DNA from: Bispira polyomma
Taxonomy: Eukaryota
Assembly: GCA_965649765.1 (NCBI GenBank)
Contig: OZ287749.1
Location: 49,042,001 to 49,106,000, forward strand
DNA length: 64,000 nucleotides
Reading direction: 5' to 3'
Each line of letters begins with the position of its first letter. The stretch's first letter is position 1. Of this stretch, positions 6,801 to 61,400 are shown piece after piece. The notes beneath the pieces are model-generated. The model saw nothing but the letters and a program-made list of their open reading frames with translations. It had not been told where the DNA came from and searched no databases. The translations under genes and the position numbers were made by a program.

Positions 6801-9482
6801 TCAGGGACCGCACGACTGAGTGTGTAGATGTGGGACATGGCATAGTATCGAGTTCCCAGTGACGTCACAGGTAATGCTACATAGGCGTCTGATGACTTGG
6901 TACCCACACTTTGCACACGGACTGTTATATCTGTGTGTGATGTGACTGAGATTCCTGAAGGTAAGAAGAGAGTAGATGCCATACCATGAAAATGTCATAA
7001 ATGACTTTTAGTATTCCAATACAGACATACCAAATAACAAATAACCGTGGACTGTACCCGTAAACCGTGTTGGTAAGCCGCAGTCGTGCGGATGTGTACA
7101 GTACTTAGTTAAGTTATATTTGGGTTAATTAAAATTATATGTAAGAATGTTTCTGTCCAAATGTACATATTTTTTTCGGTTGCCCAAAAAAGGAAATTTA
7201 TTATCCAAGGGTATAGTTAAATTTTGATTATGTGAATTTTTGTTCTGGTTGTCAATTTTTATAGAATATTTGGTATAGTGGGCCTATTTACCTTTGTCTT
7301 CTATTCCAGTCCCAAACATGTGAATATCATAGGCTAGTTCACATACACAGGGTGCAGCTGCACTGACATTAACATAAATGTCCTCAAACTCCTCAGGCGT
7401 CCACCACGTGTTGGCACTGCGCAAGCGCGGGGTTGTTATAGTTACAGGTATGACGTCACTGCTTGCTGTGCTAATATAGAGTCTTGCTTTGGGAAAATGG
7501 TCGATTATCTTGTGTTCTAACAGTCCGAGAATGAATGATTTGCCTTCTAATGCACCGGTGAGTGTGATCAGCCAAGGGTACACTGAAATAATCAAGATAT
7601 TAAGTAATTATGTAATTGCTAAAACCAAATAAACAGTGCATATTATTTTAAGTAAACTCCATGGCAAAGTATAACGTGCCCTATATATTATATACAGTAT
7701 ATTTGTATTGTATTGTTTTGGAATTTTAACATGACTTATTAATGCGAGACATCTTCTAAAGTGCAACAACAGAATCAATTAACCAATAGAGAAGTCCAAA
7801 ACATAGCCAAGGTTGTAAGAAAGGATGTGGGGGTGTACAAGGAGGGGACCAAGGGGTTGCCACATTTGAAAAGATAGGGTTTAAGCTTTTTCCCAAAACC
7901 AGAAAGTGTTTTAGTGATCTAAGCTCAACAGCGAGACTGTTTCACAACATAGGGTCAGCAATAGAGAAAGCTCTCTTGGTAGATTAAACTGAGAAAACAG
8001 AAAGTCTATTTCCCCTTTTTAGGTTGCTGGAGGAAAGGACTCTACTAATTACTTAAATTTGGACATGATGTAAAAACCTTGCCAATGTTTTGTAGAGCCC
8101 AAGTAAATACTTTGTAGGATAGTAACAACTAGTATCTACTTAGTAGGGGAATTAGTGTCACCATGGAAAATAATATGCCACCATAATAAAGTGACTCTAC
8201 TGTCTATGGCATTTAGTAGGGCCTTCTTTGTTAGTAGATGCTTTGTGGAACAATGTAGCAGGCATTTCTAAGGCTAATACCCCATTCACACTGTCCGTGT
8301 TCTTAGAGCCGTTCTTCACCTGTTCTGAGAACTTGTGAGAACTTCAACAAACGTCTGAAAACTGGCCAAAAACGGGTGTAGAACTGGGTGCGAACTGGGG
8401 CGAACGGCAAGAACGGGGGCTACAGCCGGAAATTTTGGACATGTTCAAAACTTTCGTGGGAGGACGGCTCTGAAAACACATCTTGAGAGAACTTGGGAGA
8501 ACTTAAGAAAACGGCAATGACAGGGCGATGCCGGGGCGTAAACGGGAATTGAACTGCTTAGAACTTGTGTAAAACTGCTTAAAACTTGTGTGATTTGGCC
8601 AGAACTGGAGAGAACTTAAGAAAATGTAACATAACCTTGGCATAAACTGGGGTAAATGGGTCAAAAACGGGTCTAAAACGGGTCAAAAATGGGGGATGCA
8701 AATATGTGCAAATGCAAATATACATTTTCCCACCTTTTCTTGCCCGATCGGCCAAGTTCAGCCAAGTTCTTTAGGTCTTGAGTCAACGGCAATGTCGGGG
8801 CGTGAACTTGGACAGTGTGAATGCACCATTATAGGCTACTAGATTTGATAAGTGAGGACAAATAGGGGGGTTGTTTCAGTTTCATAGCTTTGAACATAAG
8901 AAGGTTGTATTTTTAAAAAAGGTAGCCAGTGGAGTTTGTTTAGACATGGCTGAATTGTCAACTGCTGGTATATTTTTTTCTTTTATATAAATAAGATTTA
9001 TTATCACATTATCACATTACAATTATTAGACATTACAATATATTTACATTACTACAGACATATACAAAATACAACATAGCTAACTGCTAGTATCCTACTA
9101 AGAAGTATACTTGACTTTACCAAAAAAGTATGCCACCAAAATCTAGTGATTCTATTATTTATGAAATTTAGGTCTTTACTCCTTTTAGTAAGTAGGTCAA
9201 TTGTGAATTGGTGTCTGAAACTGGGACGTGATTATCTTTGAACATCAGTTCACACAGAAAATAAAACCCTGTGGTCATCTATTCAGTTAAATATGTTGCA
9301 CATTGTAACATTTTATTTAACACAAACATTTAAACATCGGAAAAGAGATAATTACAGTAATTACAGTTATAATGCTAATATAATATATGAATAAATAGCA
9401 AATTGCCTGTGTACTTACTAAGTATGAGTGTTAGTATCCACACATTTCGCCAGCTCCTTTTTATCATAATAACTGGCAGCAT
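793..9482 (-). CDS. Type I membrane protein with FCGBP-type IgGFc-binding N-terminal domain, mucin-like stalk, TM and cytoplasmic tail (~1402 aa, 7 coding exons)
   Basis: Exons 9482-9419, 7582-7292, 6954-6626, 5796-5703, 5249-5136, 4668-3217 and 2657-793 all have GT-AG boundaries and matching phases (4209 nt = 1403 codons). N-terminus MLPVIMIKRSWRNVWILTLILMYPWLITLTGA is signal-like. IgGFc-binding domain motifs: GKSFILG, SSDAYVALPVTSLGTRYY, LEKYQTYQ, DLTGTKIISSDPVVVLSG, MPPVTAWGTDF, IRSNKPILVSQFS, DPFMAIV, YG...ESYGF. These are followed by a Thr/Ser/acidic stalk and TM TTIIVVSCLPTSLIFLCLLYICC. Confidence 0.85.
5508..5689. mobile_element. Degenerate MITE with Tc1/mariner-pogo-like terminal inverted repeats
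   Basis: cctctattatctgaac near 5511 is inverted relative to gttcggaaaatagagg near 5665; the right end reads cagtagagcctc on the minus strand. Confidence 0.45.
6210..6250 (+). mobile_element. HINE/DINE-1-like (Helentron-associated) 5' end
   Basis: Short inverted repeat gtcccct...aggggac followed by tat, the typical 5' hairpin of such elements. Confidence 0.4.
7730..8960 (-). mobile_element. Decayed L2-group LINE 3' fragments interrupted by other insertions
   Basis: 7735-8040 aligns with the 3' end of the LINE at 16140-16480 (gcaacaacagaatcaatt..., aaaagataggg.tttaagctttttcc). 8920-8950 encodes PCLNKLHWLP on the minus strand. Confidence 0.65.
8278..8828. mobile_element. PIF/Harbinger-like MITE
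   Basis: 14-bp TIR core cattcacactgtcc (8283-8296) / ggacagtgtgaatg (8810-8823), TAA/TTA flanks and a GC-richer body with repeated gagaactt motifs. Confidence 0.65.
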
Positions 9483-14865: not shown

Positions 14866-17800
14866 CTATATATGATTCTTAACAAAGTCTAAATTGCTAT
14901 AAAATGTCATATTCAGCCTGTCCACACCTTTAATGTCAAGTATGGTATTATTGAAGACATATTCTTCCAAGCAGTCATAGGCCAGGGGATGATAGTCTTT
15001 GTGAAACTTATTCACAAACAATCTGTTAGAATTCACAACCGCCTTCAAGTCTCCCAGAGCAATGATACAAATGAACTTTTCAAAATATCCATGACATCTG
15101 TACTGCTCATACTTTTTACTGGTATCTATCCAGATCTTGTATCGTATGACAGATATGCCTCTCACAGGATCATGTCTGATGTTTGGTATACCTGCAGCAA
15201 TAAATAATAATAAGAACAATGAAACGTCTTATGATATGGTTGCAAACATAAGGTATAGCTACATCATTTAATGCACTATTAACCATGTGTTGATTGCAGT
15301 TTATACATCTACCTTCATCTGGTATTCAGAGCACTAATTAACCCTTTCCTAAATGTAACAGTCAACTTAATCAGTTACTGTCATTCCACTAATGGAAGAG
15401 AGAGGCTTGAGGATGACCATTTTTAATGTCCCCAATGATCTTAACCCTTCCACTGGAGGTAGGACCTAATCATAGAAGACTGCCATTTTAAGTGGTCATC
15501 CAAACCACTAGGTAATTGCGTGCACACATCTTGCCTAACGATGTAATCCTACCAATGAAAGTGGTGGTCGATACCTTCTGATCATTAGACCAACTCCCTA
15601 ACCACTAGGCCATGGGAGGCGCTTCATCATTGTGATCCTACGCCTTCAGTGGTGGTACATTCCCCCTATATCCTAGCTTTATCCTGTGTTATTCCTCCTT
15701 TCACTAACCTGTGTAAGCCCCTGGAGCACCAAGCTGAGGGGTAAAGTGAAGAGGCTGAAACATTTGTTCATCAGCAAAAGGTATGTCTTTGATATACTCA
15801 ATTAAATCTTGGGCCACTTGACTGTGTAATAAGAACTCCACAAACTTCCTTGTTACTGCCACATGGACAGAACCTATGACAATAGTAATAATATTTAGAC
15901 AATCTACTGTAAGTGCCTCAAACAAATTATGAATTAGGAAACTGTGTTAATAGCTGTGTATTGACAGCAATGAATCAATGATTTCATTTCAAAACAAATT
16001 GTTTTACAATATATTAAACACAAAGATTTAGGTTTAATGCTAAAATGAATACTCAATAAAGTGTTGTAGCTCTAATGTGTGACCTTCAATTAGACCCTAT
16101 GCCTTGTAAGAATACTAACTAACATTATTATTATTATTATAGATTTTTAACGTGCTTTATTGATGCTAGGCATCTTCTAAAGCGCAACAGCAGAATCATT
16201 AGTCCAATCATTAAGTCCATGGAAATTGCAAAGTCGTAAGGAAGGAAGTGGGAGCGTGCACGAGGAAAGCTAAAGTGGGTAGGCAAGATTAAAAAGATAG
16301 GTTTTAAGCTTTTTCCTAAAACCGATAAGTGTGTCAACTGATCTGAGGTCAACTGGGAGACTGTTCCATAACCGTGGAGCTGCAGTGGAGAACGCTCTGA
16401 AACCCACCTTTCTGATTGGTCTAACCGAAGTGACGAAGAGTCTGTTGCCTCTCTTGCGGTTACTGAAGGAAAGAAGGGAGGCAAGGTAGGGTGGCTGTTG
16501 AGTGACTACAGCTTTAAAAGTGGTAACGTGAATCTTAAACAAAATTTGAGATTTAATGGGCAGCCCGTGTAATTTTTTGAGGTAAGGAGTGACGTCTGTG
16601 CGACCACCCAGGCGAAAAATGATCCTACACAGGTAGTTTTGGATGGACTGGAGCTTTTTAATGTGTGACTTGTTTGCTCCATACAAGAGAGAATTGCAGT
16701 AGTCGAGGCGGCTACTCACAAGGTCATTTGCCACAGTTATCGCTGTGTCCATGGACAAGTGGTTTCTGATTCTTTTGATGTTGCGTATGTGGTAATAGCA
16801 GGAGCGACAGATGTTGGCAATATGAGTATCGAACGAAAAAGCTGAATCAAAAGTGACACCCAGGTTTTTAGCATTTTTGGAAGGTAGTATTTCTTTTCCC
16901 AGCAGGGAGATGGGAAACAAAGATTTTAGGAGGTCACTGTTTTTCTTGTTTCCTATGAGGATGAATTCAGTTTTGTCAGGGTTAAGGTTTAGTTTGGAGT
17001 AGTTCATCCACGCCTGGACATCAGACAGACAGTTTGCAAGTAGGTCTATGTTAGTATTTGCATTTTGTGGATTGAGGGAGAGATAGACTTGAGTGTCATC
17101 TGCATACATGTGGTTTTATATTGTGTTTATTGATGACAGTGCTGAGAGGATGTGTATAAAGGGTGAAAAGTAGAGGGCCAAGGACGGATCCCTGGGGTAC
17201 TCTATATGGTAGCTTTATGGAAGATGATAGTTGATCATCTAGTTTAATTCTTTGTGCCCTAAGAGTAAGGTAGGATCTGATCCACAGAGCGACAGATGTT
17301 GGCTATATGAGTATCGAACGAAAAAGCTGAATCAAAAGTGACACCCAGGTTTTTAGCATTTTTGGAAGGTAGTATTTCTTTTCCCAGCAGGGAGATGGGA
17401 AACAAAGATTTTAGGAGGTCACTGTTTTTCTTGTTTCCTATGAGGATGAATTCAGTTTTGTCAGGGTTAAGGTTTAGTTTGGAGTAGTTCATCCACGCCT
17501 GGACATCAGACAGACAGTTTGCAAGTAGGTCTATGTTAGTATTTGCATTTTGTGGATTGAGGGAGAGATAGACTTGAGTGTCATCTGCATACATGTGGTT
17601 TTATATTGTGTTTATTGATGACAGTGCTGAGAGGATGTGTATAAAGGGTGAAAAGTAGAGGGCCAAGGACGGATCCCTGGGGTACTCTATATGGTAGCTT
17701 TATGGAAGATGATAGGTGATCATCTAGTTTAATTCTTTGTGCCCTAAGAGTAAGGTAGGATCTGATCCATTTAAGGACACTGCCATTTACACCGAACCAC

Positions 17801-20359
17801 TGCTTGAGAGTGTCGCAGAGCAGGACATGATCAATAGTGTCGAATGCAGCTGAGAGATCCAGAAGGGTGAGGGCCACTGTGTCATTGCGGTCTAGTGCAA
17901 GATTGATATCATTGCTGATGGAAAAAAGGGCACTTTTTGTAGAGTGAAATTTTCTATAAGCAGACTGGTGGCGATTTTCAATGTTTTGTCTATTAAGGTG
18001 GTCAGAAATTTGTTTAGCTACAGCTTTCTCAATAACTTTTGAGACATAGCTGAGGTTTGACACCGGTCTGTAGTTTTTGAGCTGGTTTTTATCAAGCCCT
18101 TGTTTTTTAATCAAGGGAGTTACATTTGCCGTCTTGAAACAGGTGGGAAAAACACCATCTTGAAGAGAAAAATTTAATACATTATTCTTGCATACCTTTT
18201 GCCCAGTTAATATTGTAAGCAAATGGGTGTTTTAGATACTTTTTCCTACTGCTTACGTTAAAGCCATACTTGACTCTGGACAGTACCTTAGGAACACTGA
18301 AAATACACAAGTACTAGCTGAAATTGCTAAACACAAATTCTTAAAGCATCAGATCATGGTTCTGTAAGATTACTAGAATTATGGTGCCACAGGTGCCAGA
18401 GGAATTCAGGGTGTTTCATGAATACATTCCAATGATGCTATGCCTGTTACCTAAAGTATTTACTTTTAATTCACGCAAAATATACATAAACTATGTTATC
18501 GTTGGGACAACTTCAAATCGATAATTATCAGAAAAGTTCATTTGGTTAAAGGCTATTCTATTTTTGCTGTATTAGTGGTAAGAAAAGCAATTCATCAAAA
18601 TTAATTTTAGTGATTGTATTAAAAAAGTTTACAAACAATAACATTGAATAATATCTAACCAATTAAACTTACTATTCATAGCTTCTTCCTTGAATGTCAT
18701 TTGATCCATTGAAAGCCTTCAAAATCCTAACTACTTCCAGGTTTGTTTTGATAGGGAATTCCTGACCACATGTATTTATAAAGTAATGCCAAGGTTCTGG
18801 TCGCTTTAACAGATCGTTCATGCAAATTAGTTCTGTTTCTACCACAGAAAATTTACCCCATGTAACTTTGATTGATCTGGAGGCCAGAAAGACGTTTTCA
18901 AGACACTGGCCAATGTTGTTGAATATCTGTTTAATTAAGACAGTTCCCTTTAAATCAACATGTATGCAGTATAAATTCTGTGGCCGATAAATAGATCTCA
19001 AGAGTCTTTCTGTTTGGGAAGCATCTTTAAACATGACAATGCTGTATGCAATAGGATAGATTTCTTCTTCTTCATTGACTGGGTGTAATAAATACTTCCT
19101 CTCTTTGAGAAAGGCATCACAGTCCCCAGTAAGTTTGAGTAACTTCTTATCTGCTTGGGGATCAGTTGATATATTAGTCTGAACCTGAATAGCTCTGGTT
19201 ATTTCTAGGTCATTGCCCTCAAGAATAGCTGAACAATTTGTTAAAGTTATAATTGGATGGGGTACATCTACAATGGTTGCATACTGTTTTCTTTTGTTAT
19301 CACCTGCTTGATGGTCTGGAAATAAATAATAACCTCTATATTAAAAAAACCTTGTGGTATTAATTTGAAGCCTTATAACATAATTGTAAAATTGGCAGGC
19401 GCTGCTTTGCTGTCGTGGCTCCCGTTTAAATGGGAGAAGTTTCCATAGACTGTTAGAGCATAGGGTGCAATCACTGGTTTGAGAGGTCAACTAAAACTAT
19501 ACCTCTTTTAGACTGGCTTACCCCCTACCTTAGTTTATTCCCTGGTTGAATGATTTTGTGGTAAGCCTTGGCTTCTTTTCCGCATATTTTTTCAGATGAC
19601 GTTGGCCGATTTTATCAGTCATTATTTAATATTAGGAAGTGCTTTCTCTCAGATCAGATCAGATGTAGGCCGACGTCTGTATACCCATCATAATTTATCA
19701 GTCAACAGAGCGAAAAAACGGAAGGACGGTCCCATTTTAGAACAAAAAATATTCTCACACCATTTTACATAGTACATATCGGATAAAAAGTAAGCCCTAC
19801 ATTGGCTGATGTCGGATCAGCTCAGATGTTAATAAATCGGCCGACGACGGGATCGGCTGAAAGGATGTCTAGGCTAACAATACCTTTCATACCTTTTGTC
19901 CGGCCTTGGAACTTCCGTTTTTGGATATGAGCGCCATAGAGTATGTTCTCATCAATTTAGCGCCCTACAAATGCTTCGATTATTAATCATATTAACTAGG
20001 TATTATTTACAAAGATTTATGTGAAGTATGGTATGATGATACATACAAGATAACACAGTTATCCAATGATACTTGATGAACAACCATAAAAATTTGTTAA
20101 CGATTTTAGAATCAATATAAAATATTAACTTTGTGACCTTACCCATATTAAGTGATAACTCCATCACATTGTTATTCACCTCATTAGTATTATATGTTTG
20201 CCGAATTGTAGCCATATCTGTAGATCTGACGAAAATTTTGGTTTTATTGAATGATTGATCTAACATTTTATACATAATGGTCCAGCTTATTAGAAGAAAT
20301 AGGCCAAAAGTGATCCCACAAAACTTTTTCTTAAAACTTATAATAAATAAAGATATCAT
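14866..20359 (-). CDS. GCNT: GT14 core-2/I-branching beta-1,6-N-acetylglucosaminyltransferase (GCNT-like), paralog 1, 483 aa, 5 coding exons
   Basis: Exons 20359-20143, 19315-18673, 18296-18196, 15873-15709 and 15191-14866 (217+643+101+165+326 = 1452 nt), GT-AG and phase-consistent. N-terminal type II TM. Motifs: NCSAILEG, YPIAYSIVMFKD, ERLLRSIYRPQNLYCIHVDLK, ELICM, WHYFINTCGQEFPIKTNLE, KGSVH, catalytic ADE, CHG...ICI...GDL, LFVNKF, AYDCLE. Confidence 0.9.
16130..18178 (-). mobile_element. 5'-truncated L2-group (CR1 superfamily) LINE in intron 3 of GCNT paralog 1, with an internal 485-bp tandem duplication
   Basis: RT motifs NYRPVSNL, LLDLSAAFDTIDH, VPQGSVLGPLLF, YADDTQ, LNPDKTE, SRLDYCNSLL. 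(TAA)n 3' tail; candidate TSD acattatt at 16122-16129 and 18179-18186; absent from paralog 2. Confidence 0.9.
19565..19874. mobile_element. Harbinger-type MITE private to GCNT paralog 1 intron 1
   Basis: TAA on both sides (19562-19564 and 19875-19877), ends GCCTTGG / TCTAGGC, and subterminal IR cgttggccgatttt / aaatcggccgacg. The empty site is at ~27640 in paralog 2. Confidence 0.75.
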
Positions 20360-24406: not shown

Positions 24407-27400
24407 CTATATATGATTCTTAACAAAGTCTAAATTGCTATAAAATGTCATATTCAGCCTGTCCACACCTTTAATGTCAAGTAAGGTATTATTGAAGACA
24501 TATTCCTCCAAGCAGTCATAGGCCAGGGGATGATAGTCTTTGTGAAACTTATTCACAAACAATCTGTTAGAATTCACAACCGCCTTCAAATCTCCCAAAG
24601 CAATGATACAAATTAACTTTTCAAAATATCCATGACACCTGTACTGGTCATACTTTTTACTGGTATCTATCCAGATCTTGTATCGTATGACAGATATGCC
24701 TCTCACAGGATCATGTCTAATGTTGGGTATACCTGCAGCAGTAAAATAATAATTATAACGATGAAACATCTTATGATATAGCTGCAAACATCTTAAGGTA
24801 CAGCTGCAACTTTAAATGCACTATTAACCATGTGTTAATTGTAGTTTTATTTGTATTCATTTGTATTTGTATACTCAGTGCATACATCTATCTTTATCTG
24901 GTATTCAGAGCACTAATGAACCCTTTCCTAAATGTAATATATGATTTAATTCAAAAACACAAAATCATTTGATTTGGTTTCAGTATAGAATGTTGCATTG
25001 TATACTTGGCACAGGGAGTTTCCTGTTAAAATGTCCATTACTGATTCAGATATTTGTAGATTGTGCAATACTGACTGTGAAACATTATTACACTTATTTG
25101 TGTTCTGTCAACCAGTGCAACAACTATGGAGTGATTTGAAGCATTGGTTGAAAAACTATTCCACTACTGAAGTTAATTTTGATCTAAAGCTTATTATATT
25201 GGGTAACATTAGCAATGATAGAAATAAAGTCCTTCCAATCAACCTTATTATAATAGCAACTGTATAAACTAAACTTAAACATATCTACCAAAACGAATAT
25301 TATGTATATAAAGAAAAAGGAAGGGAAGGCACATTTAAAGAAATTTGGTCAAACACAAAATTGCTCTTTTATGTAAATATATAGAAAATGTATAATTGTG
25401 TTAGTATTGTTATGTAATTAAGTGTATTTCCTTATTTAGTCTTGTTTTAATTGTAAAGTAGTTTAACTATCTATCTATTTATTTGTTTTTCTCTATTTTC
25501 TTTATCTACTGAGCCATGCATGTACGAACATTTATATGTATATTTCTATTTCTGTACTTGTTATTATATAATAAAAAATAAAAAATGTAACAGTCAACTG
25601 CATCAGTTACTGTCATTCCCCCAACTGAAGAGAGGCTTGAGGATTACCATTTATCAACGTCCCAAGAATCTTTAGCCTGCCACTTGGAATGAGACCCAAT
25701 GACAGAGGACCACCATATTAAGTGGTCATCCGAGCCAGGTAAATGCGTGCACAGATCTTTCTAAAAGATGTTATTCCACCAATGAAACTAGCAACAGGTA
25801 CCGAGAGTAGAACCTGGGACGTTCTGATCATTAGACCAACTCCCTAACCACTAGATCATGGGAGGCGCTTCACCTTGGTGTTCCTACGCCTCCAGTGGTG
25901 GTACATTTCCCCTACATCCTAGGTTTGTCATAGGATATTTCTCCTTTCACTAACCTGTGTAAGCCCCTGGAGCACCAAACTGAGGGGTAAAGTGAAGAGG
26001 CTGAAACAATTGCTCATCAGCATATGGCGTGTCTTTGACATACTCAATTAAATCTTGGGCCACTTGACTGTGTAACAAGAACTCCACAAACTTCCTTGTT
26101 ACTGCCACATGGACAGAACCTATGACAATAATCATCATATTTAGACAATCTACAGTGAGTGCCTCAAACATAGTTTGAATCACAAAACTGTGTTAATGGC
26201 TGTGTATTGACAGCAATGAATCAAATATGTCTAATATCTAACATATTACGTTATTATTTTTGCATACCTTTTGCCCAGTTAATATTGTAAGCAAATGGGT
26301 GTTTTAGGTACTTTTTCCTACTGCTTACATTAAAGCCATACTTGACTCTGGACAGTACCTGCGGAACACTGAAAATACACAAGTACTGGCTAACACAAAT
26401 TCTTAAAGCATCAGTGCAGGATCATGGTTCTGTAAGATTACTGGAATTATGGTGCCACAGGTGCAAGAGGATTTCAGAGTAGTTTAACAAAATTAAAGTT
26501 TCATGAATACATTCCAATGATGCTATGCCTGTTACCTAAAGTATCTACTTTTAATTCTCACAAAATTTACATAAATTATGTTCTTGTTGGGACAACTTTA
26601 AATCAATAAAAAGTTTATTTAGTTAAAGGCTATTCTATTTTTGTTGTATTAGTTGTAAGAAAAGCATTTCATAAAAAGTAATTTTTGTGATTGTATTAAA
26701 AAAGGTTAGTATAAACAATAAAATCGAATAATATCTAACCAATTAAACTTACTATTCATAGCTTCTTCCTTGAATGTCATTTGATCCATTGAAAGCTTTC
26801 AAAATCCTAACTACTTCTAAATTTGTTTTTATGGGGAATTCCTGACCACATGCATTAATAAAGTAATGCCAAGGTTCTGGTCGCTTCAACAGATCATTCA
26901 TGCAAATGAGTTCTGTTTCTACCACAGAAAATGTACCCCATGTAACTTTGATCAATCTGGAGGCCAGAAAGACGTTTTCAAGACACTGGGCAATGTTGTC
27001 GAATATCTGTTTAATTAAGCCAGTTCTCTTCAAATCGACATGTATGCAGTATGAATTCTGTGGCCGATAAATAGATCGCAAGAGTCTTTCTGTTTGAGAA
27101 GCATCTTTAAACATGACAATGCTGTATGCAATGGGATAGCTTTCTTCTTCTTCATTGACTGGGCGTAATAAATACTTCCTCTCTTTGAGAAAGGCATCAC
27201 AGTCCCCAGTAAGTTTGAGTAATTTATTATCTGCTTGGGAATCAGTTGATATATTAGTCTGAACCTGAATAGCTCTGGTTATTTCTAAATCATTGCCCTC
27301 AAGAATAGCTGAACAATTTGTGAGAGTTACAATTGGATGGGGGACATCTACAATGCTTGCATACTGTTTTCTTTTGTTATCACCTACTTGGTGGTCTGAA

Positions 27401-28119
27401 AATAAATAATAACCTCTGTATTAAAAAAACACCTTATAGTATTATTTTAAAGCCGTATAAGATATTGTAAAATTGGCCGACGCTGCTTTGCTGTCACGGC
27501 TACTGGTCAATGGTAGAAGCATCTTCCACAGATTGTTAGATCACAGGATACAATCACTGGATTCAGAAGCCAACTCAAAACATACCTATTCAGACTGACC
27601 TACCCCCTACCTTAGTTTCTTCCCTGGTTGGATGTTTTTCATAACAGTACCTTTGGTACCTTTTTGCCTGGCCTTGGATCTTCCTTTTTTAATATCAATG
27701 TATGCTCTCATCAATTTGGCGCTCCATATATGCTTTAATTATTAATCATATTAACAAGGCAATTCTTACAAGGATTTATGTGAAGTATGGTATGATCATA
27801 CATAAAAGATAAAACAGATATCCAATGATACCTGATGAACAACCATAAATATTTAATAACGGTTTTAGAATCAACATAAATTATTACTTTGTGTGACCTT
27901 ACCCATATTAAGTGATAAATCCATAACATTGTTATTCACCTCATTAGTATTATATGTTTGCCGAATTGTAACCATATCTGTAGAGCTGACAAAATTTTTT
28001 GTTTTATTGAATGATTGATTTAACATTTTATCCATAATGGTCCAGCTTATTAGAAGAAATAGGCCAAAAGTGATCACACGAAAGTTTTTCTTATAACTTA
28101 TATTAAAGAAAGATATCAT
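24407..28119 (-). CDS. GCNT: GT14 core-2/I-branching beta-1,6-N-acetylglucosaminyltransferase (GCNT-like), paralog 2, 483 aa, 5 coding exons
   Basis: Exons 28119-27903, 27395-26753, 26368-26268, 26119-25955 and 24732-24407; identical exon lengths and the same GT14 motifs as paralog 1, with no stops seen. Confidence 0.9.
24938..25582 (+). mobile_element. 5'-truncated L1/Tx1-type LINE 3' end, private to paralog 2 intron 4
   Basis: C-terminal zinc motif CRLCNTDCETLLHLFVFC, A-rich tail and TSD aaatgtaa (24930-24937 / 25583-25590). The empty site cctaaatgtaacagtc is in paralog 1 (~15350). Confidence 0.8.
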
Positions 28120-40900: not shown

Positions 40901-42425
40901 AATGCTTACAAATATAAGAACTGTACATAAACCTTTCCTTCGCAATGTAGTGCGCATGATTTATACGCAATGCAATTTACACAATGCACACAGTGAGTTT
41001 ATGTCCAAAACTTTTATTTAAAACATTCTACTTTATTAAAAGTAATTCGCAACAGCTTCTAGGAAATGGCCCATTGGGAAACACTTTCATTAATTCAGGT
41101 CTGAATGTTAAAAACATTCACAATGGTTTATTTCACTGTAATAAGTTTTAGAGAAAAAAAATGTGATAAATAATTTTAAAGTATCAATATTTGTTTAGCA
41201 CCTAAGTGCTTTAAATCCTACAACGCAGGTGAATAATGCCTTAATCAATGCAACACATTTAAAAAAAATAATAATATATCAGTAGATAGCCACTTCTGCC
41301 ATTGTTAGGTATATTTTCAACCATTTTGCAACAGCTTCTAGGAAACAATTTGTTTCTATTTTTCAAATAGGTCCTAATTCTAAGTGCTTTAATGTAGCCG
41401 TAGATGGCAACTTCTGCCATTGTTTGGTATATTTTAAAACAATTTCATTGAGTACATTTAAACTCAGTTTTTGTTGGGGATTCAAAAGGATATATTTTAC
41501 GGAATGCACAAGTAGAGACAACTAGTGTCAATAACTTTCATTCCATTAACAGAAGACAGAAGCTCAAAGATGATCATAAATCAACGTCCTCTAGCTTCCA
41601 TAGCCCATGAACTGGTCTCCTGTGTCCCAGTGGTGAGGAACTTACAGGCCCCACCAACCCCAGGAGAAGAACGCTCAAAAACACATGAATTGAGCTTACT
41701 ATTTTTATTATACATAAAATTGAGGTTATTGCTACTACTACAATATGTTTACATATCCATTGACTATATATGTTAAGTTCGTTATACACATTGAATTAGT
41801 ACATTATGTATTCTAATAAATCTTTAATTAGTACATTACTGATTCTGGCAACCTTAACTCAACACTCAGTCTTTCAAATTTAGGTTGGCTGACAGTAAAC
41901 TATGAGCACCATAACATCACTTTAAGGAGACCCTTATGTTCCCTTGATTTAACACATGCTACAATTCACTTTAAGGTAACAGACCCAATTGTACATTGAG
42001 TCTGGACAAAGCTTTTCTAATACAGGTATCTGTAAGAACTTGCCAACCTGCAGCAGTTCTGCACTGGAATAAGGGCTCATGTTGCTGAGGGTTATACAAC
42101 TGAAACACGTCACACAAGGCTCTGTATGGACAGAGGTGTGAGTCACCTAGCTTGGGGAGACTAATGACATTGACCTTGTTTCTGTCTTGCATTGTCTAAC
42201 ATCACTTTAAGGGGACCTTTATGTTCCCTTTATTTAACACATAATGATACAATTCACTTTTAGGTAACATTAACACGTGTATAAAAATTTGGAAAATATT
42301 GAGTAATAAGTAAATTTCATGAACAGTAATAGCATAACATAACAGTAAAATTTCCCTCAAGCCCAAGAGTAATGCAGTGCTGCATTTATGTAGCTATTTA
42401 TCTAATATGGATTGAAACGAACGAG

Positions 42426-43370
42426 CTACTTGCTTCCCAAGTTGTGGTCTGCCTGGATGTACCTCCACACACAATCCGACATCCAGGTGGCATGATGTTT
42501 GATCTGTTGTATTGGTATATTTGCATTATAAGCAAATGTAGCACCTAAACATCGGAAGGTGTGGAACGTAAAGTAATGCGGGTCCAGACCCAATTGTACA
42601 TTGTGTCTAGACAAAGTTTTTCTAATACAGGTATCTGTAAGAACTTGCCAACCTGCAGCAGTTCTGCACTGGAATAAGGGCTCATGTTGCTGAGGGTTAT
42701 ACAACTGAAACACGTCACACAAGGCTCTGTATGGACAGAGTTGTGATTCACTTAGCTTGGGGAGACTAATGACATTGACCTTATTTCTGTCTTGCATTGT
42801 CTTAGTCCATTTTATTAAGACCTTGACCAGAGACTTTGTGAAGAAGACATCGCCCCCTGCCAAGTGTCTGGTGCTGTCAAAGGTATGCAAAGAATGTGGG
42901 GCAATATTTGACGCTCTAAACAAAACAAAAAATGCTGTTAGAAACACAGCCTTGAAAACCTTGCCATGATGCATTTTTTTCACATAATAATATCAAGCTT
43001 TTCAGTGTTACTTCATCCATGATGTTTGTACGCATTATTGATATGGGTCTATTAATTCTAACAGTTTTTACAAAATACTTGATTTTGGGTTGCTCAAAGC
43101 ACTGATAGGGGAGATCATAGATGATGCAATTTGCCTTTATGGCTGATATATAATTGCTAATCATGTTGACTGAGACTCCACTTACCACCAAACATTCCAT
43201 AAAGGCCAACACTACCTCAGTATTGATATCTGCTTATTTAACTTTTACATGTAAACAAAATGACACAAAGTTCTTGAATAGCATGCTGTAACATTTCTGG
43301 GTCTTTGGTCGAAATGCCTGTTGCAATCTAGCACCTGCCTGACCCGACAGCGTTGCCACCACACTGTGAC
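42426..43370 (-). pseudogene. Tyrosine recombinase/integrase of the Ngaro element (one in-frame stop, one frameshift near 42980)
   Basis: AFRPKTQKCY N-terminal core-binding region; FRASN, KWTKTMQ, CPY.AL, FHTFR, HATW.SD.VWRYI. Confidence 0.85.
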
Positions 43371-43417
43371 CTACAACAAAGTATAGTATCATTAGTTATC
43401 AGTATGTGCTGTACATT

Positions 43418-45100
43418 ATAAGTCATTATCTAATTCTAACATTTCAATACACACAGGAAGCCATACTGGCTGTTGCACATACATTAATAATTCACTGTTA
43501 TTTGCCACTCTATTCTACCATCTAGACAGGAGATCGGCAGTTCTACTCAGTTTGCCCAAGACATGGATGTACTGCAGATCTACATCTGCTAGTGCAGCCA
43601 GATACCATACATTCCTGGCACAGGCCCCCAAGAAAGGGGCCCTGGCCCTACCTGACTGCAGCACTTTCACTACAGCATCATTGTCACATTTAATTAGCAC
43701 TCGTCTACCACTCCAATGTTTGTAAAACAACCTCAAGGCAAGTAATATATTGATCATTTCTAAATGAACAATATCTAGCTGTTGTAACCCCTACATATTC
43801 CAAGGTGGTATACCATGTCTTTCCATCTGCCCCCCAAACCTGTTAGGCAGGCATCTAGTGCTAATATAAAATCAGTGTTTTTATGGTCATACATCAATAT
43901 GCCATCGTATGTTGGCAGAAATTTAGCAAACCACCTGAAGTCCCTGAAGAAGTCTGCAGTCAATTGTATTTTGCCCCCATGTTGGCTTTTTCTCAAAAGC
44001 TCCAGCATCCTGTTTAAGAAGAACCTGGCCGGCTTTACACATTTGTGTACATACAGTAGCAGTCCCATAAGGGACTGCAACTGCCTAATAGTACAAGTTT
44101 TCCAGCTATGCCATTCCTTGACAACTTCATTAATTTTGTGCAACTTATCTTGGGGAATCGAGATGGTTCCAGTTTCTGTACTAATGAGGACTCCCAAACA
44201 CACAGCCTGCGTGCTAGGGGGTATCAATTTCTTTGCACTAATCGTGAGACCCAAATTTTCCAACAATTGGTATAGGCATTCATAGGACTTCTTTGCTACA
44301 GCGGCCATGCCGTACCCAATATAATTATCAATGTAGTCCACGACACTGTAACCACGGCAACGCATGACATTTCGGACACCGTCACTTAACCGCTGAAAAA
44401 TTTGTCTTCCGTGTCTACTCCCAAAGGGAAGACACGTGTGGACGTATGTGCCTTTACATGACAAGCCCAGCAAGTCGTAGTCACACAAGTCAATCTTTAC
44501 GTGGCAAAATGCCGTGCTGACATCTATTTTATACACATCCGAGCCACGGCCTAATTTCCTAAGCTCATATGTGATGTGATCAAGCAGAAGTCAAACAGAA
44601 GTCAGTGCCTAGATAAGTATTCTTATCTACCGCCGCGTTTACCGAGTGTCCCTCCAGCCAACTCAAGTCTATTATCACACATCTGTTAACCGACCCTGGC
44701 TTGTGTCTAGTCATGAAGGGGGAGCAATGCCACCCTTTATTGGATGTTTGTCAAAAGGGCCTATAATTGCCCCATGTTTTATTTCTTTATTCAAATAGGC
44801 TTCTATGTCTTCAGGGAAATTAACAGCTGACTTGTGGTTTTCCCCCTCCCACACCAAATCAGTGTCCCTGTTAAAGTCCAATGGTAACCCATATTCAATG
44901 AACTCTAGTATTACCTGGTCCCAGTAGTCTTTTAATACCAGTTTCCAATGGTCTACCTTTAATTGGGAGTTGACACACAGTGTGCCTTAATAGGGTCAGT
45001 CATTACTGGGGCCTGAGTTTGAACAATGTCATGGTGAAGTGGGTCTGATAATGGAACAAAGCCATAATTGAAATCAGTTTGTTCTTGCCACCGTCTGTGT
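43418..45100 (-). pseudogene. RT-RNase H (pol) of the Ngaro element, frameshifted
   Basis: ORF pieces 44536-43775 and 43757-43515, plus upstream motifs in 45000-44540; natural end ...LELDNDL* at ~43418. Confidence 0.85.
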
Positions 45101-47784
45101 GCTAACACCATGTCCACTTAACCTGTCACATCTCTATGTTTGTATAATATTGAATGGACAAATTTATCACCCTCACCATTTCTATTTATGTCAAACAACT
45201 GGGTTTGTTTCCCCTTAGCGTTTTGTTTCAATTCACTGGCCGTGGTACTACAACTAACTTCATCTGCAGATGTATTGTTACTGGCTAATTGAATCCCATC
45301 CCCACTATGTTTAATCAAGTTTTGACACCTCTTTTGTTCCCCACCCGTGACTCCTCCCACAACAAGGAAGGTGTTATTCCCCTACTTGTTATGGTTGGGT
45401 CACACTGCACGGTTTGTGTAACACTTTCATTGTCTCCTCTACATTGTTGACAATTTGAGGACACTTGCTTTGTTTAAACACTCTCTCAGTGACACGTCTG
45501 GTTTTGTTGTTTACCCTGGCACCCTGAGCATTGACCCTAATTTTTTTTTGCTAACAATTCTAGTGGGGCAGTGCACGTACCTAGTTCCATTTTCCTTTCC
45601 ACCTGCCAAAAAAAGCCTCAATGTTTTTCCTGGCAGTTTTTAAATGATAAAAATGTCTGGTTCTATAACACTGGTGTACATGAGCCTGATGTTTAACATT
45701 GGACCTGTCACTGAGAATCGTGTTTTTAAAACTCTTTGCTATTCTACCTAACGTAAAACACATATCACCAACACAGTGATTAAACCTCTGAACCCATTTT
45801 TATCAACAACATTACACAACACTAGGTTATTGTTGTCTGGAGTTATTACCTTTTGTCCCTTATACAAAATACTGCCCACTTTTCTTGCTACAGGGGAGCA
45901 GCTGGCTGCTCGTTTTGTGAATGAAAATTTTCCTTCCCAAACATACAGTCCTTTTCTGGGTGACCACTCACCCTGCCCCTCTCCAGACAAGAAGAACATA
46001 TGTTTGTGGATTTTGCCATCGTTCACGTGGTCCTTACTCTGGCTACAAGCCCCAGTTTGATACGCTTTGCAATACAAATGTTTACCACCCCGATTAACAT
46101 CTGAATTTTTTCCCAGTTATTTTTACTTGGTACTACATGCTTTTGTGCATGAGCACGTCAAATTCTATCTATTCTATGACTATCTTATCATTTCAGGGCC
46201 TCCTTTCCATCTCACAAAGCAGCACAGCGTGTGCTGCTTTAGCTGTGTGCCAGGAGAAATCAGTGGCATCCTCCATCAAATCTGACATGCATAGTAACAT
46301 TTTCTCTCTAATATCGGAGCTCCTCAACAATATTCTTGGTGAAACCCTGCACCCACTTAGTGAGTGACAACTGATGAGGAAATGCGTTGCCTAGTAGTGC
46401 CACCTATTATTGTTTCTTGGGGCCAGGAGACTTTGCTTTTAACTATTACCTATATATTCCCCCCCCCCTATTTTATTTAATTTTGTTTGCCCCATCATTA
46501 CCTTTCTGGCTTGTGGACTCAGCCTCTAAAGCACGAACACGAGTATCCACCTGCTTTTGCAGCTCATTTGAACTTCTCAACACAGATATATTTGGGGACA
46601 ATTACCTCCTTAGAGGATGACTACTTATTTAAGTAGGCACTCCTTACCTTAAGATTGTTCTGTGATGACGATTCTGCTGCTCCTGTTAAGTGACCAACTG
46701 CCACCTTGTCCTCCACCAAGTCCAGCCGTTCGTTCACCTTCCACAGCTGTTTCAAGATCAGTCGTTGCACATCTTCTTCATCAGATGAAAATTCAGAGTC
46801 CATTGCCGTCGACATCCGGGTGTCTTTGCTCTTCTTGCTCTCCACCCTTGTGTTCCTCATAGGGATCTTTTCCTTCTCTGGTTTAAAGGCTCCAGTAGTG
46901 CAGTTCTTTCCCGTGGGGGGTAGTGTCTCAACAGACACTTATTACATTTCACTTTATTTTTACTAGGCATTGTTTATGCTCTAGAGTTGTTCATATATAG
47001 TCCAGTATCTAGAAAGTTCATACACAAACACCACCAGTACGCTGTTTGAGGCAAATCCAAGCTTAATAGCCAAATTTCAAATAAATTACCCTGTTAATTA
47101 TATATGATATACAAACATCCCTTTTTAAGAGACCCTTTCGAGTCAAATCAAGCATGAGATTGTCAAAGAGCGTATGGTAGTGGTATAGAGGTTAATATTC
47201 CTTGTAGAGTAGACACAAACACAAAAAGTCAGGTTAAAATAAACTAAAAGATGTAAATGATAAAAGTTCAGCAGATAAAAAGTCCTAAAAAAACACAATT
47301 CAATATTTCACATCTGACTTGTTCATTCAGTCAGTTCAAACTGAGAAAGTATGGGGGGTTTCTTGTAAACAAGCTAGGCTTAGCCAATCACATACGTTGT
47401 GTATCTTATTGCCTAGGTAATAGGGGATTCCAGCTGACATCACAAATAAGCAATTAGCCTGGTATCCTACTAATTTTGAATGGGCTTAAGGCCTGACCCC
47501 TGTGATGCCTTGACACCCTGGTTCGACTCACAGTAACACAATAATATCGGTTTTACTCCTGGTTAAAATGAGCATGCTATTGCTTACTGATGATGAACAC
47601 TTGGCTTATTGTATTATAATCATGATTAATTGATTCTAGTTTTACTAGCAGCTGTCTGGCATCAATAAGGCACGTTAAAATTGACGTTAATAGGAAGATC
47701 ATATTCATTCTGTGAAGAGTGTGTGACCCACTAGGTAGACCGAGTTTTCTGACCTTGCTGACGCTTTGATTAATTGACAAGGAA

Positions 47785-47845
47785 CAGAGCGTGTACCATA
47801 AGCAAAAGTCTACAAATCTGACTTTTGCTTATGGTAGCCGCTGTG
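47785..47845. repeat. Hairpin with a perfect 17-bp stem and 9-nt loop, extendable to ~26 bp with mismatches
   Basis: taccataagcaaaagtc (47794-47810) / gacttttgcttatggta (47820-47836). Confidence 0.9.
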
Positions 47846-49074
47846 TCGTTAACAGCAGCACATCTGTTTCAGCGACAGGGAACTCTGTCTACACACTAGG
47901 CTACAGTGAAAGACAGCAAATAGCACCATTACTCAATTTGTGTCTTATAGACGCAGGTCACTAATAATTTTTCTTGGTTTAAGAAGAGTTTTGACCACAG
48001 TGAGTATTAGTCCATTATTGCAATATTAGTTCAATTGTTACAGCTTTTAGGTTAAAAAAGTTTTTTTGTGATAACTGTTTAAAGTTTTAATATTTGGTTC
48101 CAGTTTTGGAATAGGGTATTCATGAAACCTGACTATATTGTAGTAAAGTGGTGTATTTAAGAGAAGAATTGAGACAATTTACCTGAGTGTGTACAATACG
48201 CACAACTAAAAAGTAAGGCACTTCACCAACTAATAGAAGTGACAACATCATTCCCCTTTACTGTGTCCACGACAATGAAGCAGAAAAGCATGCTTAATGA
48301 CAAATTAGGCATGAGAGAGCTTGGGTGACGTTATCGATATCAAAGTGAGGTCGTTTTGAAGCTACTCATTTACCAATTACTAATTGAGAGAACGTAATAC
48401 ACCATATAAGTTGTGTTTTATGAATCACTGACTACATAAATAGCACAGGACTAAGCTAAGTGGGACAGAAGGGAGAGCTGAAAGGTGGAGTTTATTGGCT
48501 GCTGCAGGATGCTAATTGTAGTAGATATTTGCTCAGCGTGTGCAATAGTTGACAGTTATGTTTCTACTTTGTCTACTCCTGCAGAAACATGGAATGTTTT
48601 GATATTGACAAATGAAAGACCCTTCTTACTTTAATTGGCAGTTTCACCGGCTAAAAGTGGTATGGACGGTTCTGAAGACATTGACCAGAACCATATAAAC
48701 ATTATAATTTGTGCTTTTTAGACTCTTTGTTGTTGTGTTTTCATATGCAGGATATATTACAGGCTCATAATAATTGTTTGATAATAAGAGTAATGGACTT
48801 CAAAAAGGGACACAGTCACTCTTATTTAGAAGGGAAAACGTTCTGTCATATTTATTACTGAGACAAACAAAATTGAAACGTTTATGGATATTATGAGCAA
48901 AGATGTTATGTTTAAGTGTCTTTTCACCTTTGCTTCCTTGGTGTGCTTGATAAACTAAGAATCTTTGTGTTTAAAGACTTGAACAGATTTAAAAGTATTT
49001 AATAAAAGAAAGCTGGCATGCAGGATTCATCAAATCAGTTGCATCAATAAGGAAAGTAACAAATACACAGCAAA

Positions 49075-50070
49075 ATGAAAAACAAACTCATTTTTACGTC
49101 AGGACTGCCTAAGCTGAGGTTTGATAAAGCTTTCCGAGAATTGGGTGTTTGGCTGGACTTTCACATATACTTAGCAGGAACACTGTTTTGGATTATTGCT
49201 GTACTTTCTGCAATTTTGTGCTTTCAAATCTGGAGGACAAAACTGGTAAAAAGGAAGGCTTATTACACTGCACTGACAACCATCACATGTATGCATGGTA
49301 CACTAAGGGGGCTATATTTTTGCGTGGATGGATACAACACATCTGGGACTTTTCCAAAGCCTGTTAACTCCGTCATGGGGTCTATTTTTCTGCCGTGTTT
49401 AGCTTCGTCGTTCTATCTCTTGTTTTCAGTTGTAATGGCTATAACAAAGATGAGAATCATTAGGAAAGAATTTATGAAGCCAGTTTCTCTTGTACTGGTA
49501 ATTACAATTAACTTTAGTTTTGCTATTGCGTCTGACATCCTTTCCTCCTACTTTGTACAGGCTGGTTTGATACAACTGATTTGTATGGCATATTTTTCAC
49601 TGTTTGGCATGGTATTCTTCATCATGTATATCATTGCATTTGTTAGATTTTACAAAACGACCAGGCCTTCTGAATCACCTCATAATTTCATCAAAGCAAT
49701 TTACAAATCTAACGAGGGAGCAAGTTATGATGGTACCATAGATACAGAACAGAATACTGCCAGCTCATCGGCTGGGAACAGCTACAGAATTCAAAATCAA
49801 CCCGTTATGCTGGAGGTAACAACCAGGCGTACAGTCAAGAAGACACATTGGCTGGTGCCCTTGACTTTAGTGGCTGCCAGTTTGTTTCTAGTTGTTTCAT
49901 TGGTTGGAGTGTATTTCCTGGTAGTTACTGTCCACGTGATGTTTTCTCCAGATGGTTACATCAATCACTGGGTATGGTTCGGTGTGCAGTGTACCTTTCG
50001 GACAATGGAAGTCTCCCAGTTACTTGTAATACTACTTGTGGTGTATCTAGCCATACATAAAAAGAATTAA
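49075..50070 (+). CDS. PRRT3/PRRT4-like multipass (about 7 TM) membrane protein, single coding exon, 331 aa
   Basis: Intact ORF with aaaATG context and about seven hydrophobic segments. Family-like motifs W..FHIY..G.LF, G.LRGLYF.VDGYN, PCL.S.F.LL and W.W...Q..FR..E. Confidence 0.75.
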   Translation: MKNKLIFTSGLPKLRFDKAFRELGVWLDFHIYLAGTLFWIIAVLSAILCFQIWRTKLVKRKAYYTALTTITCMHGTLRGLYFCVDGYNTSGTFPKPVNSVMGSIFLPCLASSFYLLFSVVMAITKMRIIRKEFMKPVSLVLVITINFSFAIASDILSSYFVQAGLIQLICMAYFSLFGMVFFIMYIIAFVRFYKTTRPSESPHNFIKAIYKSNEGASYDGTIDTEQNTASSSAGNSYRIQNQPVMLEVTTRRTVKKTHWLVPLTLVAASLFLVVSLVGVYFLVVTVHVMFSPDGYINHWVWFGVQCTFRTMEVSQLLVILLVVYLAIHKKN

Positions 50071-57800: not shown

Positions 57801-60800
57801 TATTGTTTTTGTAGTTTCAATAGGTTTGTGCCCTTGCTTAGAGGTTCTTGGGAGGATCTATAACAATTTTAATACTGTCAATAATTAAGGTTAACCTAGA
57901 AATTTTTTATTTAAATATAAGGGGATTAGCTTGAAATGTTTTACCTAGAAGGCCATTTTGCCAAAAGCTTAATTTTTACATACAATAAGTCAGTCCATCT
58001 ATAAAATATATGCTATGCACTTGACTTTGGGTTAGGATACCAAACATGTCCCCCCAAGAATCTTAACAGTAGTAATTTGACCTTGTTATTATTATTGTGA
58101 TTAATGCTCACACTTTTTTATGTGAAATTTGATCTGTGCGCAGTAAATTATTACTTCTTGTTATTTTAATGTCATTAGAATATTGTTTATTATAGTTCTC
58201 TAAAATAAAAATGAATAAAATTAAATGTGATAATTAACTTGCATTCTGCCGTTCTTTTTGTCCTTTCACATAAAAGTTGTCTGTCTCTGCAAAAGAAACA
58301 AAGGGCTTTTTGCATTTAACACCTAGTCTAAAAATGAAATAATATCTTGCTTTAACTAGTGAATCAAACTATTTTGGGCCATATTTGGTGATGTGAAAAA
58401 AGTTATATTAATTTTTGATTGTTGTTAATTAAACCTATTTTACATTACAAAAAGGTTAAATTTGCCTGAAGTTTAGGTATTCATGAGGCAATATCTGAGC
58501 AAAATTTGTATACCTCAGTTGCATATTTTTCAACGAGTTATTGTGAAACATTTATATTTTCTAAAAGATTTTGAAAAAAAAAAAAAAAGATTTCAGGCTT
58601 TTGGGTATCTTTACAATCATAGACTAGTTTTCCACAACGTGTTGTCACTTAAATGTGTAGGCAACTTTTTAAAACTAATGCCACTCTCCATTATCTATCA
58701 CATGCCCACAAAATACATTTCTCTGCTTAGACAATCCACTGATGCTGAGGTTTAGTATAGAGGTCCAAGGTGAATTAGTGAAGACAGTGAAAGATGTTGT
58801 TTGAGGTTTTATTTTACAAATTAATATTTATCTATAGCTTTACAATATAAAATTAAGTTAAAATTTAAATGCAATATAGTTTTAAGCCCATTCTTGACAA
58901 TTTTTGATTCCATCTTAGTTTTTTTCCCACTGCCAGATGCATGCTGTTCTCAGTACAGGGTCAGTGATTTTGTGGCATCATACTTACCCCTAGCATTTGA
59001 ACTTGGTTATGCTCTAGGGGAATAAACTTTAAATGAAAAAGGGCATTTTATTTTAACAATTTTTCTTGACAACTGCTACAGAATCGGGACAGGATTCTAT
59101 GAAAATAATTTCTTTCATTAAAACCAAACCAGTGTGATTAATATGAACATTGCCATGATATGTACTGAAAACTTTGTCTATAGATTCCAAACCGTGTTTT
59201 TAATTGCTGGTCCCAACCTAAGTGCCTGTTTGAAACAATTTTTTTACAACATATATTTTAAAGGTAGGATCTTCTGTAGAATGATAAACGACACACTTTA
59301 TCACTGAGGCAGTAATTGTGTCAACTCGTTTGAATGCCACTGTATTAACTTTGCTTATTCAATTGTTGAATCAAGTGGAATGTTCTGCATCAGCTATATT
59401 CATTATTGTTATCCTTAGTATCTTGTTTTCGTGATTTTTTTATTATTTTATACATACATGGCCCCCTTTCAAAGTTTCACACATATAATGTTCTGTTGAC
59501 ACTTTGGAAGATACATAGCTTGATAAATTCATCAATGTGCTCTTTGACTTCTAGTTCATATTACTACCTGAAATGCAGCACAATACAGTAGAATAAATTT
59601 GAAAAGTTGAAAATAGGAATGCACATAATTGAGGTTCTGCTCTAAATAGTCAGCTAGAAACCTAAGAAACGTTACTAATGACTTAAATATATTTATGTAC
59701 ATTGCCACGCCTCCCCCTTTCTCTTCTTACTTGTCATTTGATTTGTATATTGCCCCCAACCACCGAACCCCCGTCGATCAATTACCAGTTCTCACAATTG
59801 GGATATTTAAATACACTCAATCATAAGGCCCACAAATATAAACTGTTTCAGCCTTCACCAACAATTTTAAAGTTGAAAATATTGGTACATAGTACAATAT
59901 AAATTTGACCAATAGAATTAATTTTAGTTTAAATTGATGACATGCCATATGATATTTTATGTTTTAATAATGTCAAACATAGGCATCCATTTTACCAGTA
60001 GGGTAATAATACCAATCGATGTGAATTTATTTGAAATTGATCACCCTTTTTATTAATGGCCTGGTCTCATATAGACGAATATTTGGCAGTATTCGTTGTA
60101 TCTAGCAAATCCTAGTTTGTGAACTTTCGTCCACAAACCTGTGCCATGAAACTGATGCATACCTCCACTAACACCCACTAACTTGCAGTAATCCCCACCA
60201 GTTAAAAAACGAATACCCATTAATACCTCACTGATACCATCGAAAGGTCAGTATCTGCTACTAATTGACACTAATGCAAAATCAGCCATAAAAACCTGCT
60301 ACTGATGAAAAACGTTCCAAAACTAATCAAGATACATGCCCATCTACCTAATAATCAAGTCACATGTAACAGTATTGTTAAGTTAATTTATGTACGAAGT
60401 TTCTTTAAGTTTTATCTTTATAGCATAATTATATCAAATATGCATAAGTTTTGCACATAAATCTTATGTGTTGATTTACACACGTGTATAATCAATGTGT
60501 AAAGTGAGTTTATAGTTTTTGTAGTTACTGGGTACTGTGACAGCTGCCAGTGGTAGGGACACAACAAAGAGTGACCCTGACAATACTGAGGAGGAAGTAC
60601 AGCTGAACATGTGTACTAAGGCATCCAGTAGTACAGCTGTAATTAATTTACAGATAAATCCAGAGATTTCTATAATTTTAATTTGAATAACTTGAATTGT
60701 AGGCTGGATTTTGTCCTAATAGACGTTATTATGTGTATCTTTTTCACTTATTTATACTGTCACAGAATTTTTGGAGAATATTGTATGATATTGTATTTCT

Positions 60801-60814
60801 TATTATATTTAAGA

Positions 60815-61400
60815 AAAGGAACCAACCACACATTAGTGGACTGGTATAACTTTGCTAGAAAAGTCAGTCTACAAATATCTAGATTGGATAACCAAAAAAT
60901 AGGTGGCTCAGGTATTACTGTTAAAATTGATGAAAGCAAGTTCGGAAAAAGGAAATATCACAAGGGCAGAAGGATTGATGGCTGTTGGGTGGCATTGAAA
61001 GTGTTTGAAAAAGATGGGGGTTTTCAAATAGAAGATAGATCAGCGGCCACTTTGATACCTATAATTAAGAAATACGTTCATGAGGGTTCTATATTCCCTT
61101 GTGACTGCTGGAAAGCTTACTCTTCCCTTGAAAAAGAAAGATATACAACTAACTATACACCAAACCATTAAAAAAAATTGTAGACAGTGAAACAGGTGCT
61201 TACACACAAACTACTGAATCAACCTGGAATGCTCTTAAGAAGCATCCCAAAACAGGATCACAAAAACACATGTATGATGGTTATTTTTGGAAGTAAGTTG
61301 TTAGGAAACGCTGTTTCACTGACTGTAGTGACAATTTTCTCCAATTTTTGGAATTCATAAAACGTGTCTACAATTCAAAGAAAGAGGAGAAACAAGAGAA
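60815..61400 (+). pseudogene. Merlin (ISXO2/IS1595-like) DDE transposase relic
   Basis: VDWYNF.R, KIGGSG..V.IDESKFGKRKYHKGR, DRSAATLIPII, DCWKAY, NH...VDSETGAYTQ..ESTW; frameshifts present. Confidence 0.85.

Follow-up and report, generated by a model that had tools for sequence, protein, structure and literature searches.

Ngaro-like retrotransposons of the order DIRS are described, in the excerpts of PMC3783388, PMC9210276, PMC4157794, and PMC3266345 from which we drew their features, as carrying gag, reverse transcriptase/RNase H (RT/RNase H), and tyrosine recombinase (YR) genes in that order, without a methyltransferase, in the arrangement A1-open reading frames (ORFs)-B1-A2-B2. Because the overlap between YR and pol is described as variable in the excerpts of PMC3783388 and PMC3266345, it was not used here as a defining feature. 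For expression of the 3′ recombinase gene in this order, the proposal that we met in print is a frameshift out of pol: Poulter and Butler (2015), as quoted in PMC13003380, regard this as the probable route to an Ngaro YR overlapping pol in the −1 frame. Here, we analyze an element of this kind in a 64,000-nucleotide (nt) stretch of the Bispira polyomma genome (GenBank assembly GCA_965649765.1, contig OZ287749.1, positions 49,042,001 to 49,106,000 of the forward strand; hereafter, the window), which belongs to contig 2 of the 1.04-Gb genome. Comparison with related copies suggests that YR is likely made from a spliced mRNA that joins window position 46502 to 43370 and encodes Gag residues 1 to 173 fused to YR (approximately 498 amino acids). 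Such Gag-YR splicing is predicted from strong comparative evidence and would add a new mode of expression to an established class of elements.

The element lies on the minus strand and consists of the following features, given in window coordinates:

41644 to 47517, minus strand: Ngaro-type YR retrotransposon, a decayed copy with the order A1-gag-pol-YR-B1 and without A2-B2; sister copies align from 47517 to about 41644
47301 to 47517, minus strand: A1 terminal repeat, which recurs after B1 in sister L039 at 99%
45888 to 46970, minus strand (ATG at 46970): gag, broken in the window copy, encoding a Zn knuckle, coiled coil, linker, helical core, and C-terminal Zn fingers
43416 to 45918, minus strand: pol (RT plus RNase H, no methyltransferase), broken in the window copy, with its stop codon TAA at 43418-43416
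42394 to 43370, minus strand: YR exon (SAM-like N-domain plus phage-integrase domain), with 2 indels in the window copy
41980 to 42219, minus strand: local duplication of a YR segment (a copy of 42585-42824), present in the window copy only

We conclude that the element is Ngaro-like, a class assigned on its structure. As in described Ngaro-like elements, gag, RT/RNase H, and YR follow one another on one strand, although in Pfam searches only RT scored above the curated cut-off: PF00078 exceeded it in intact sister pol frames, where PF13456 (RNase H) was weak, and the matches of intact sister YR frames to PF13102, PF13495, PF02899, and PF00589 all fell below it. Again as in Ngaro-like elements, no methyltransferase was detected; two intact pol frames, both ending after RNase H, lacked any match to Dam (PF05869) at E values up to 0.5. 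Split direct repeats in the order A1-B1-A2-B2, with the internal ones downstream of YR, were found in 10 of 99 sequences: L039, a member of the window family with the full arrangement, and nine other loci (L048, L067, L068, L072, L073, L089, L092, L101, and L113). DIRS1-like inverted repeats were not found in the window element, and its sisters have direct repeats. In contrast to the described elements, pol and YR mostly do not overlap here, no fourth ORF encoding a hydrolase was seen, and the majority of copies, the window copy included, terminate at B1. One further locus (L065, oriented 5857-6099) has an inserted copy of the A repeat directly upstream of YR. The window copy itself is dead; its identity to sister L035 is 93.8%, with 24 indels in coding sequence. 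Intact sisters encode a Gag of 380 amino acids, a pol frame of 890, and a YR frame of 333 whose second residue is Met.

The comparative sample was assembled in two steps. A DNA search with the element returned 42 matches, from which 38 other copies were taken, and 60 more distant copies (YR 44 to 72% identical) were picked from 124 YR matches. Of 62 copies, 3 lacked the AFRP anchor and were dropped; the remaining 59 formed 31 families at an 85% cut. Eight of the 31 families had no gag anchor and were left out of the donor count (n = 23), and three had no found pol end and were left out of the pol-YR count (n = 28). Two control alignments omit 6 of 31 and 10 of 23 families, respectively, because of stops or a missing motif.

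Two conserved sites carry the case for splicing and define a predicted intron:

46496 to 46504, minus strand: conserved phase-1 5′ splice site AAG|GTAATG (GT at 46501-46500), in the Gly174 codon of Gag
43371 to 43395, minus strand: conserved 3′ splice site, comprising CTAAT at 43395-43391, a GATACTATAC block at 43390-43381, and a T-rich tract with AG (tttgttgtAG) at 43380-43371; phase 1 to the YR frame
43371 to 46501, minus strand: predicted 3131-nt intron holding the C-terminal half of Gag and all of pol, as deduced from the two sites

All GT sites were scored on the Gag alignment with donor weights, and a single phase-1 column emerged, at Gly174, inside a variable linker. A phase-1 AG|GY donor was kept in 22 of 23 families, with the Gly codon reading GGT in 21 and GGC in 1; at the level of individual copies, the donor was in phase 1 at 123 of 136 anchored sites. 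Within the Gag alignment, this Gly was encoded by GGT in 20 of 21 sequences (GGC in 1), compared with 121 of 396 for other Gly codons. The codon before it ended in A in 22 of 22 families, whether it encoded S, T, A, K, or R, and in all 22 the codon after it began with A (encoding T, K, N, I, or S). Both the donor and the acceptor were also in phase 1 in a distant second YR element (L047:7000-8310, plus strand) whose YR is about 31% identical. Among Gag proteins of other genomes, 38 of 45 had N, K, T, I, or M as the residue after the linker Gly, versus 25% after other Gly residues. A structure model of Gag (mean predicted local distance difference test score [pLDDT], 65) placed the donor directly after a helix at residues 152 to 171, at the start of a low-pLDDT linker (residues 173 to 190); the Zn knuckle and a long helix precede it, and the helical core comes after. 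A fold search with this model gave no match at E up to 0.001. Another donor candidate late in gag (CAG A|GT AAG) was rejected, since it was not recovered as a conserved column. Near the donor, a G run after the KIKSKRG motif (window ~46480-46462; L129-L188) is a frequent site of frame breaks in many copies, reflecting either a mutation hot spot or assembly error.

A preliminary description of this stretch had already proposed a spliced Gag-YR fusion that skips pol. The idea is supported by phase-matched sites conserved in about 30 families, but the donor named there was wrong. That donor, AAG|gtaagg at 46647-46646, is present and in phase 0, yet it is a substitution private to the window copy and not a feature of the family: at this site, all 15 close sisters that cover the position read AAG TTA AGT, and 9 of 9 Gag sequences have this Leu. 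Because the donor is missing from the sisters, the 3277-nt intron proposed with it, joining 46648 to 43370, is not real. The comparison of sister copies suggested at the time thus gave a divided answer, with the acceptor conserved, the donor at 46647 not conserved, and a phase-1 donor at 46501 conserved in its place.

The acceptor and the end of pol have held up better. The stop codon confirms the earlier placement of the pol end at about 43418, and the acceptor is where it was first described, at tttgttgtAG (43380-43371), in phase 1 and preceded by CTAAT (43395-43391). In the form xxA|G, it was present in 30 of 31 families, which encode seven different residues there, and the distance from the AG to the AFRP motif was 53 nt in nearly every family. 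AG likewise preceded all 53 and all 59 further YR exon starts, which were located by exon-side patterns; the 53 comprised 30 of 42 matches of one pattern search and 23 of 23 of another. In YR proteins of other genomes, a [VSLAP][GDEV] pair occupied the place of the acceptor in 42 of 52, a loose pattern that lends weak support. Farther upstream, a CTATRCTTTG block stands 16, 18, or 19 nt from the exon depending on the family; since its spacing varies and it is read in two frames, we regard it as a nucleotide motif and not a peptide motif. The GATRCTATRC block (43390-43381), between the branch point and the T tract, is conserved across families in two reading frames. Candidate partners for long-range pairing with the acceptor block were rejected, as they had no consistent position. 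As a control for shared ancestry, 39 four-fold columns were taken from the gag and YR genes of these families, and conservation there reached a maximum of 0.76. The synonymous positions of the donor and acceptor were nearly fixed, compared with this maximum of 76%. On this comparative evidence, we conclude that the YR acceptor at 43371 is genuine.

The relation between pol and YR bears on the published proposal for Ngaro, quoted in PMC13003380, that a programmed frameshift leads from pol into YR, or on the related possibility of readthrough. YR overlaps pol in 8 of 28 families, and in 6 families an in-frame pol stop is directly followed by the opening of the YR frame, as this route would have it. 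However, the offset of YR relative to pol is 0, 1, and 2 in 10, 6, and 12 of the 28 families, respectively, and 20 of 28 have no overlap; the varying offset and the small number of overlapping families make such a frameshift unlikely. For the window family, the opening of the YR frame lies 20 nt past the pol stop, behind a stop codon of its own, and these intervening stops exclude a pol-YR frameshift there. Across the element group as a whole, we regard the chance that YR is expressed in this way as very remote.

Several observations weigh against the proposed splice. Family counts are not counts of independent events, because the families are related by descent. Copies lacking the intron, searched for at both of its ends, were found at 0 of 15 close-family YR exon starts, at 0 of 53 and 0 of 59 further starts (pattern-matched and top-ranked copies), and at 0 of 60 gag exon ends. 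A gag-YR junction was absent from the matches listed (15 joints each) in three genome-like contig sets with even multi-copy cover, a result that says nothing on expression. No fused Gag-YR protein was present among 138 or 167 database proteins, nor was one found in a longer-protein database search, a weak search. The donors are weak at positions +4 to +6, and in 20 of 31 families, an in-frame ATG lies upstream of the acceptor. During these searches, gag-YR neighbors in L047, L061, and L126 were considered as intron-less copies and rejected as imprecise deletions, and a 539-amino-acid frame considered as a fusion candidate was rejected as gag-pol run-through.

The upstream ATG raises the possibility that YR is made alone. 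Contrary to the preliminary description, the YR frame of the window copy does contain such a codon: it reads TAA CTA ATG ATA CTA TAC TTT GTT GTA GGT CAC, with the ATG at 43392-43390 overlapping the proposed branch point, seven codons before GHSVV. Translation could begin at this ATG (43392), either through reinitiation downstream of pol or on a transcript from an internal promoter, in which case the "acceptor" would be the coding sequence of an MLYFVVG-like N terminus. Besides the ATG in the window copy and in the 20 families, many database YR proteins called from MLYFV or MLCFV speak for this route. Yet 11 of 31 families have no such ATG, some of them single decayed copies, and in one of the 11 a nearby in-frame ATG is lacking from 9 of 9 copies. 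Moreover, the position of the ATG shifts while the AG stays fixed, families differ in which of two frames they read the acceptor block, and this route gives no reason for the matched donor in gag. We consider independent translation of YR unlikely.

Upstream of gag, an alignment of 21 element leaders revealed three further features:

47339 to 47389, minus strand: candidate promoter, with a CCAAT-like box at 47389-47381 and an initiator-like TCAGTT at 47344-47339, conserved in the leader alignment
47118 to 47165, minus strand: conserved leader block, likely an RNA structure, recognized by sequence conservation in the leader alignment
47009 to 47018, minus strand: acceptor-like site before the gag ATG, a T-rich YAG in 21 of 21 aligned leaders

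The last of these was recorded in the preliminary description as aactttctAG at 47010-47009 and is indeed present. Together with a CAG|GTA donor-like motif near the 5′ end of the leader (A repeat of L070-L128) in 19 of 22 families, this second acceptor in 21 of 21 leaders is compatible with a different splice pattern, in which the YR acceptor is real but has a leader exon or a trans-spliced leader as its 5′ partner, and the gag donor takes part in some other splice. Against this stand the absence of the leader donor from the window family (near window 47455), the fixed phase 1, which would be needless for a noncoding leader, and the position of the first Met after the acceptor in intact sisters, which falls inside the SAM-like domain. 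The single acceptor candidate examined in pol, a TCAG look-alike at GFVPLSD, occurs in the window family only and was rejected as not conserved. A 5′ partner other than gag thus seems decidedly improbable. A possible leader donor downstream of the initiator-like site was also rejected, as the conserved GTG at that place seems to belong to a hairpin. A short hairpin after the initiator-like site, at window ~47335-47310 (minus strand), has arms that differ between families and still pair by eye, making it a candidate RNA signal.

In Gag-Pol −1 frameshifting at A AAA AAC, pol is reached through a slippery heptamer followed by a downstream stem. A candidate of this form is found at the end of gag:

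45871 to 45918, minus strand: gag-pol −1 frameshift candidate, an A AAA AAC heptamer (degenerate in the window copy) plus a downstream hairpin

Of 17 families, 12 have an in-frame A AAA AAY heptamer at the end of gag, in every case followed by a predicted stem of −13 to −22 kcal/mol, and Pol itself is thus likely produced by a −1 frameshift at this point. In the spliced Gag-YR model, unspliced RNA would serve as the genome and copying template and as mRNA for Gag and, via the −1 frameshift, Gag-Pol. A fraction of the RNA would be spliced, with removal of the Gag core and pol, and the lack of +5 G in the donors would suit such partial splicing. The retained Zn knuckle and coiled coil might, more speculatively, act in the particle as a tether between YR and Gag or RNA. 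Extended to a widespread invertebrate Ngaro clade, the model would have one RNA give rise to Gag, to Gag-Pol by −1 frameshift, and to a spliced Gag(N)-YR that the Zn knuckle and coiled coil load into the particle, with the GATRCTATRC block setting the spliced fraction; we give this broader version somewhat better than even chances.

Elsewhere in the window, Thr/Ser-rich, mucin-like frames occupy 793-6994 (minus strand), with segments that we take to be IgGFc-binding-like. Long interspersed nuclear element RT fragments lie at 16270-18231, and two near-identical frames of 222 amino acids at 18672-19340 and 26752-27420 (minus strand) presumably resemble a core-2/I-branching glycosyltransferase exon. 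Just beyond the element, a short inverted repeat at 47784-47846 has very high contig depth and is likely a small high-copy element. An open frame of 336 amino acids at 49060-50070 (plus strand) has several hydrophobic stretches, looks receptor-like by eye, and had no Pfam match, and a fragment at 60647-61171 (plus strand) presumably resembles an IS1595-like (Merlin-type) transposase.

Our literature searches, which lay outside Poulter and Butler (2015), the 2004/2005 papers, Repbase Reports, and supplements, found no published description of a gag-YR splice. Most of the families compared here cannot use the pol-to-YR frameshift, the proposal that we met in print, as quoted, for the recombinase of DIRS-order elements. 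If the Gag-YR splice is real, the actual recombinase would be a Gag fusion of about 500 amino acids. Database YR proteins would then have incorrect N termini, consisting of translated acceptor sequence, and the fusion would be the right protein for biochemistry.

Expression of a 3′ gene by partial splicing of genomic RNA is familiar from retroviral env and foamy-virus pol. The splice proposed here differs from these in that its donor lies in the middle of gag and adds about 173 codons and in that the 3′ gene encodes a tyrosine recombinase. Among YR retrotransposons, PAT-like elements likewise have split direct repeats, but they carry a methyltransferase domain that was not found here; DIRS1-like elements, also YR retrotransposons, are unlike this element in their methyltransferase domain, inverted repeats, and internal complementary region. 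Relative to Ngaro-like elements, the conserved gag-to-YR splice signals set the present families apart, being unmentioned in the excerpts of PMC3783388, PMC9210276, PMC4157794, and PMC3266345. In plant Ty1/Copia elements, according to the excerpted text of PMC5580714, a conserved alternative splice balances subgenomic mRNA against full-length RNA; that splice yields Gag only, whereas the one proposed here would produce a fusion of the integration enzyme with half of Gag.

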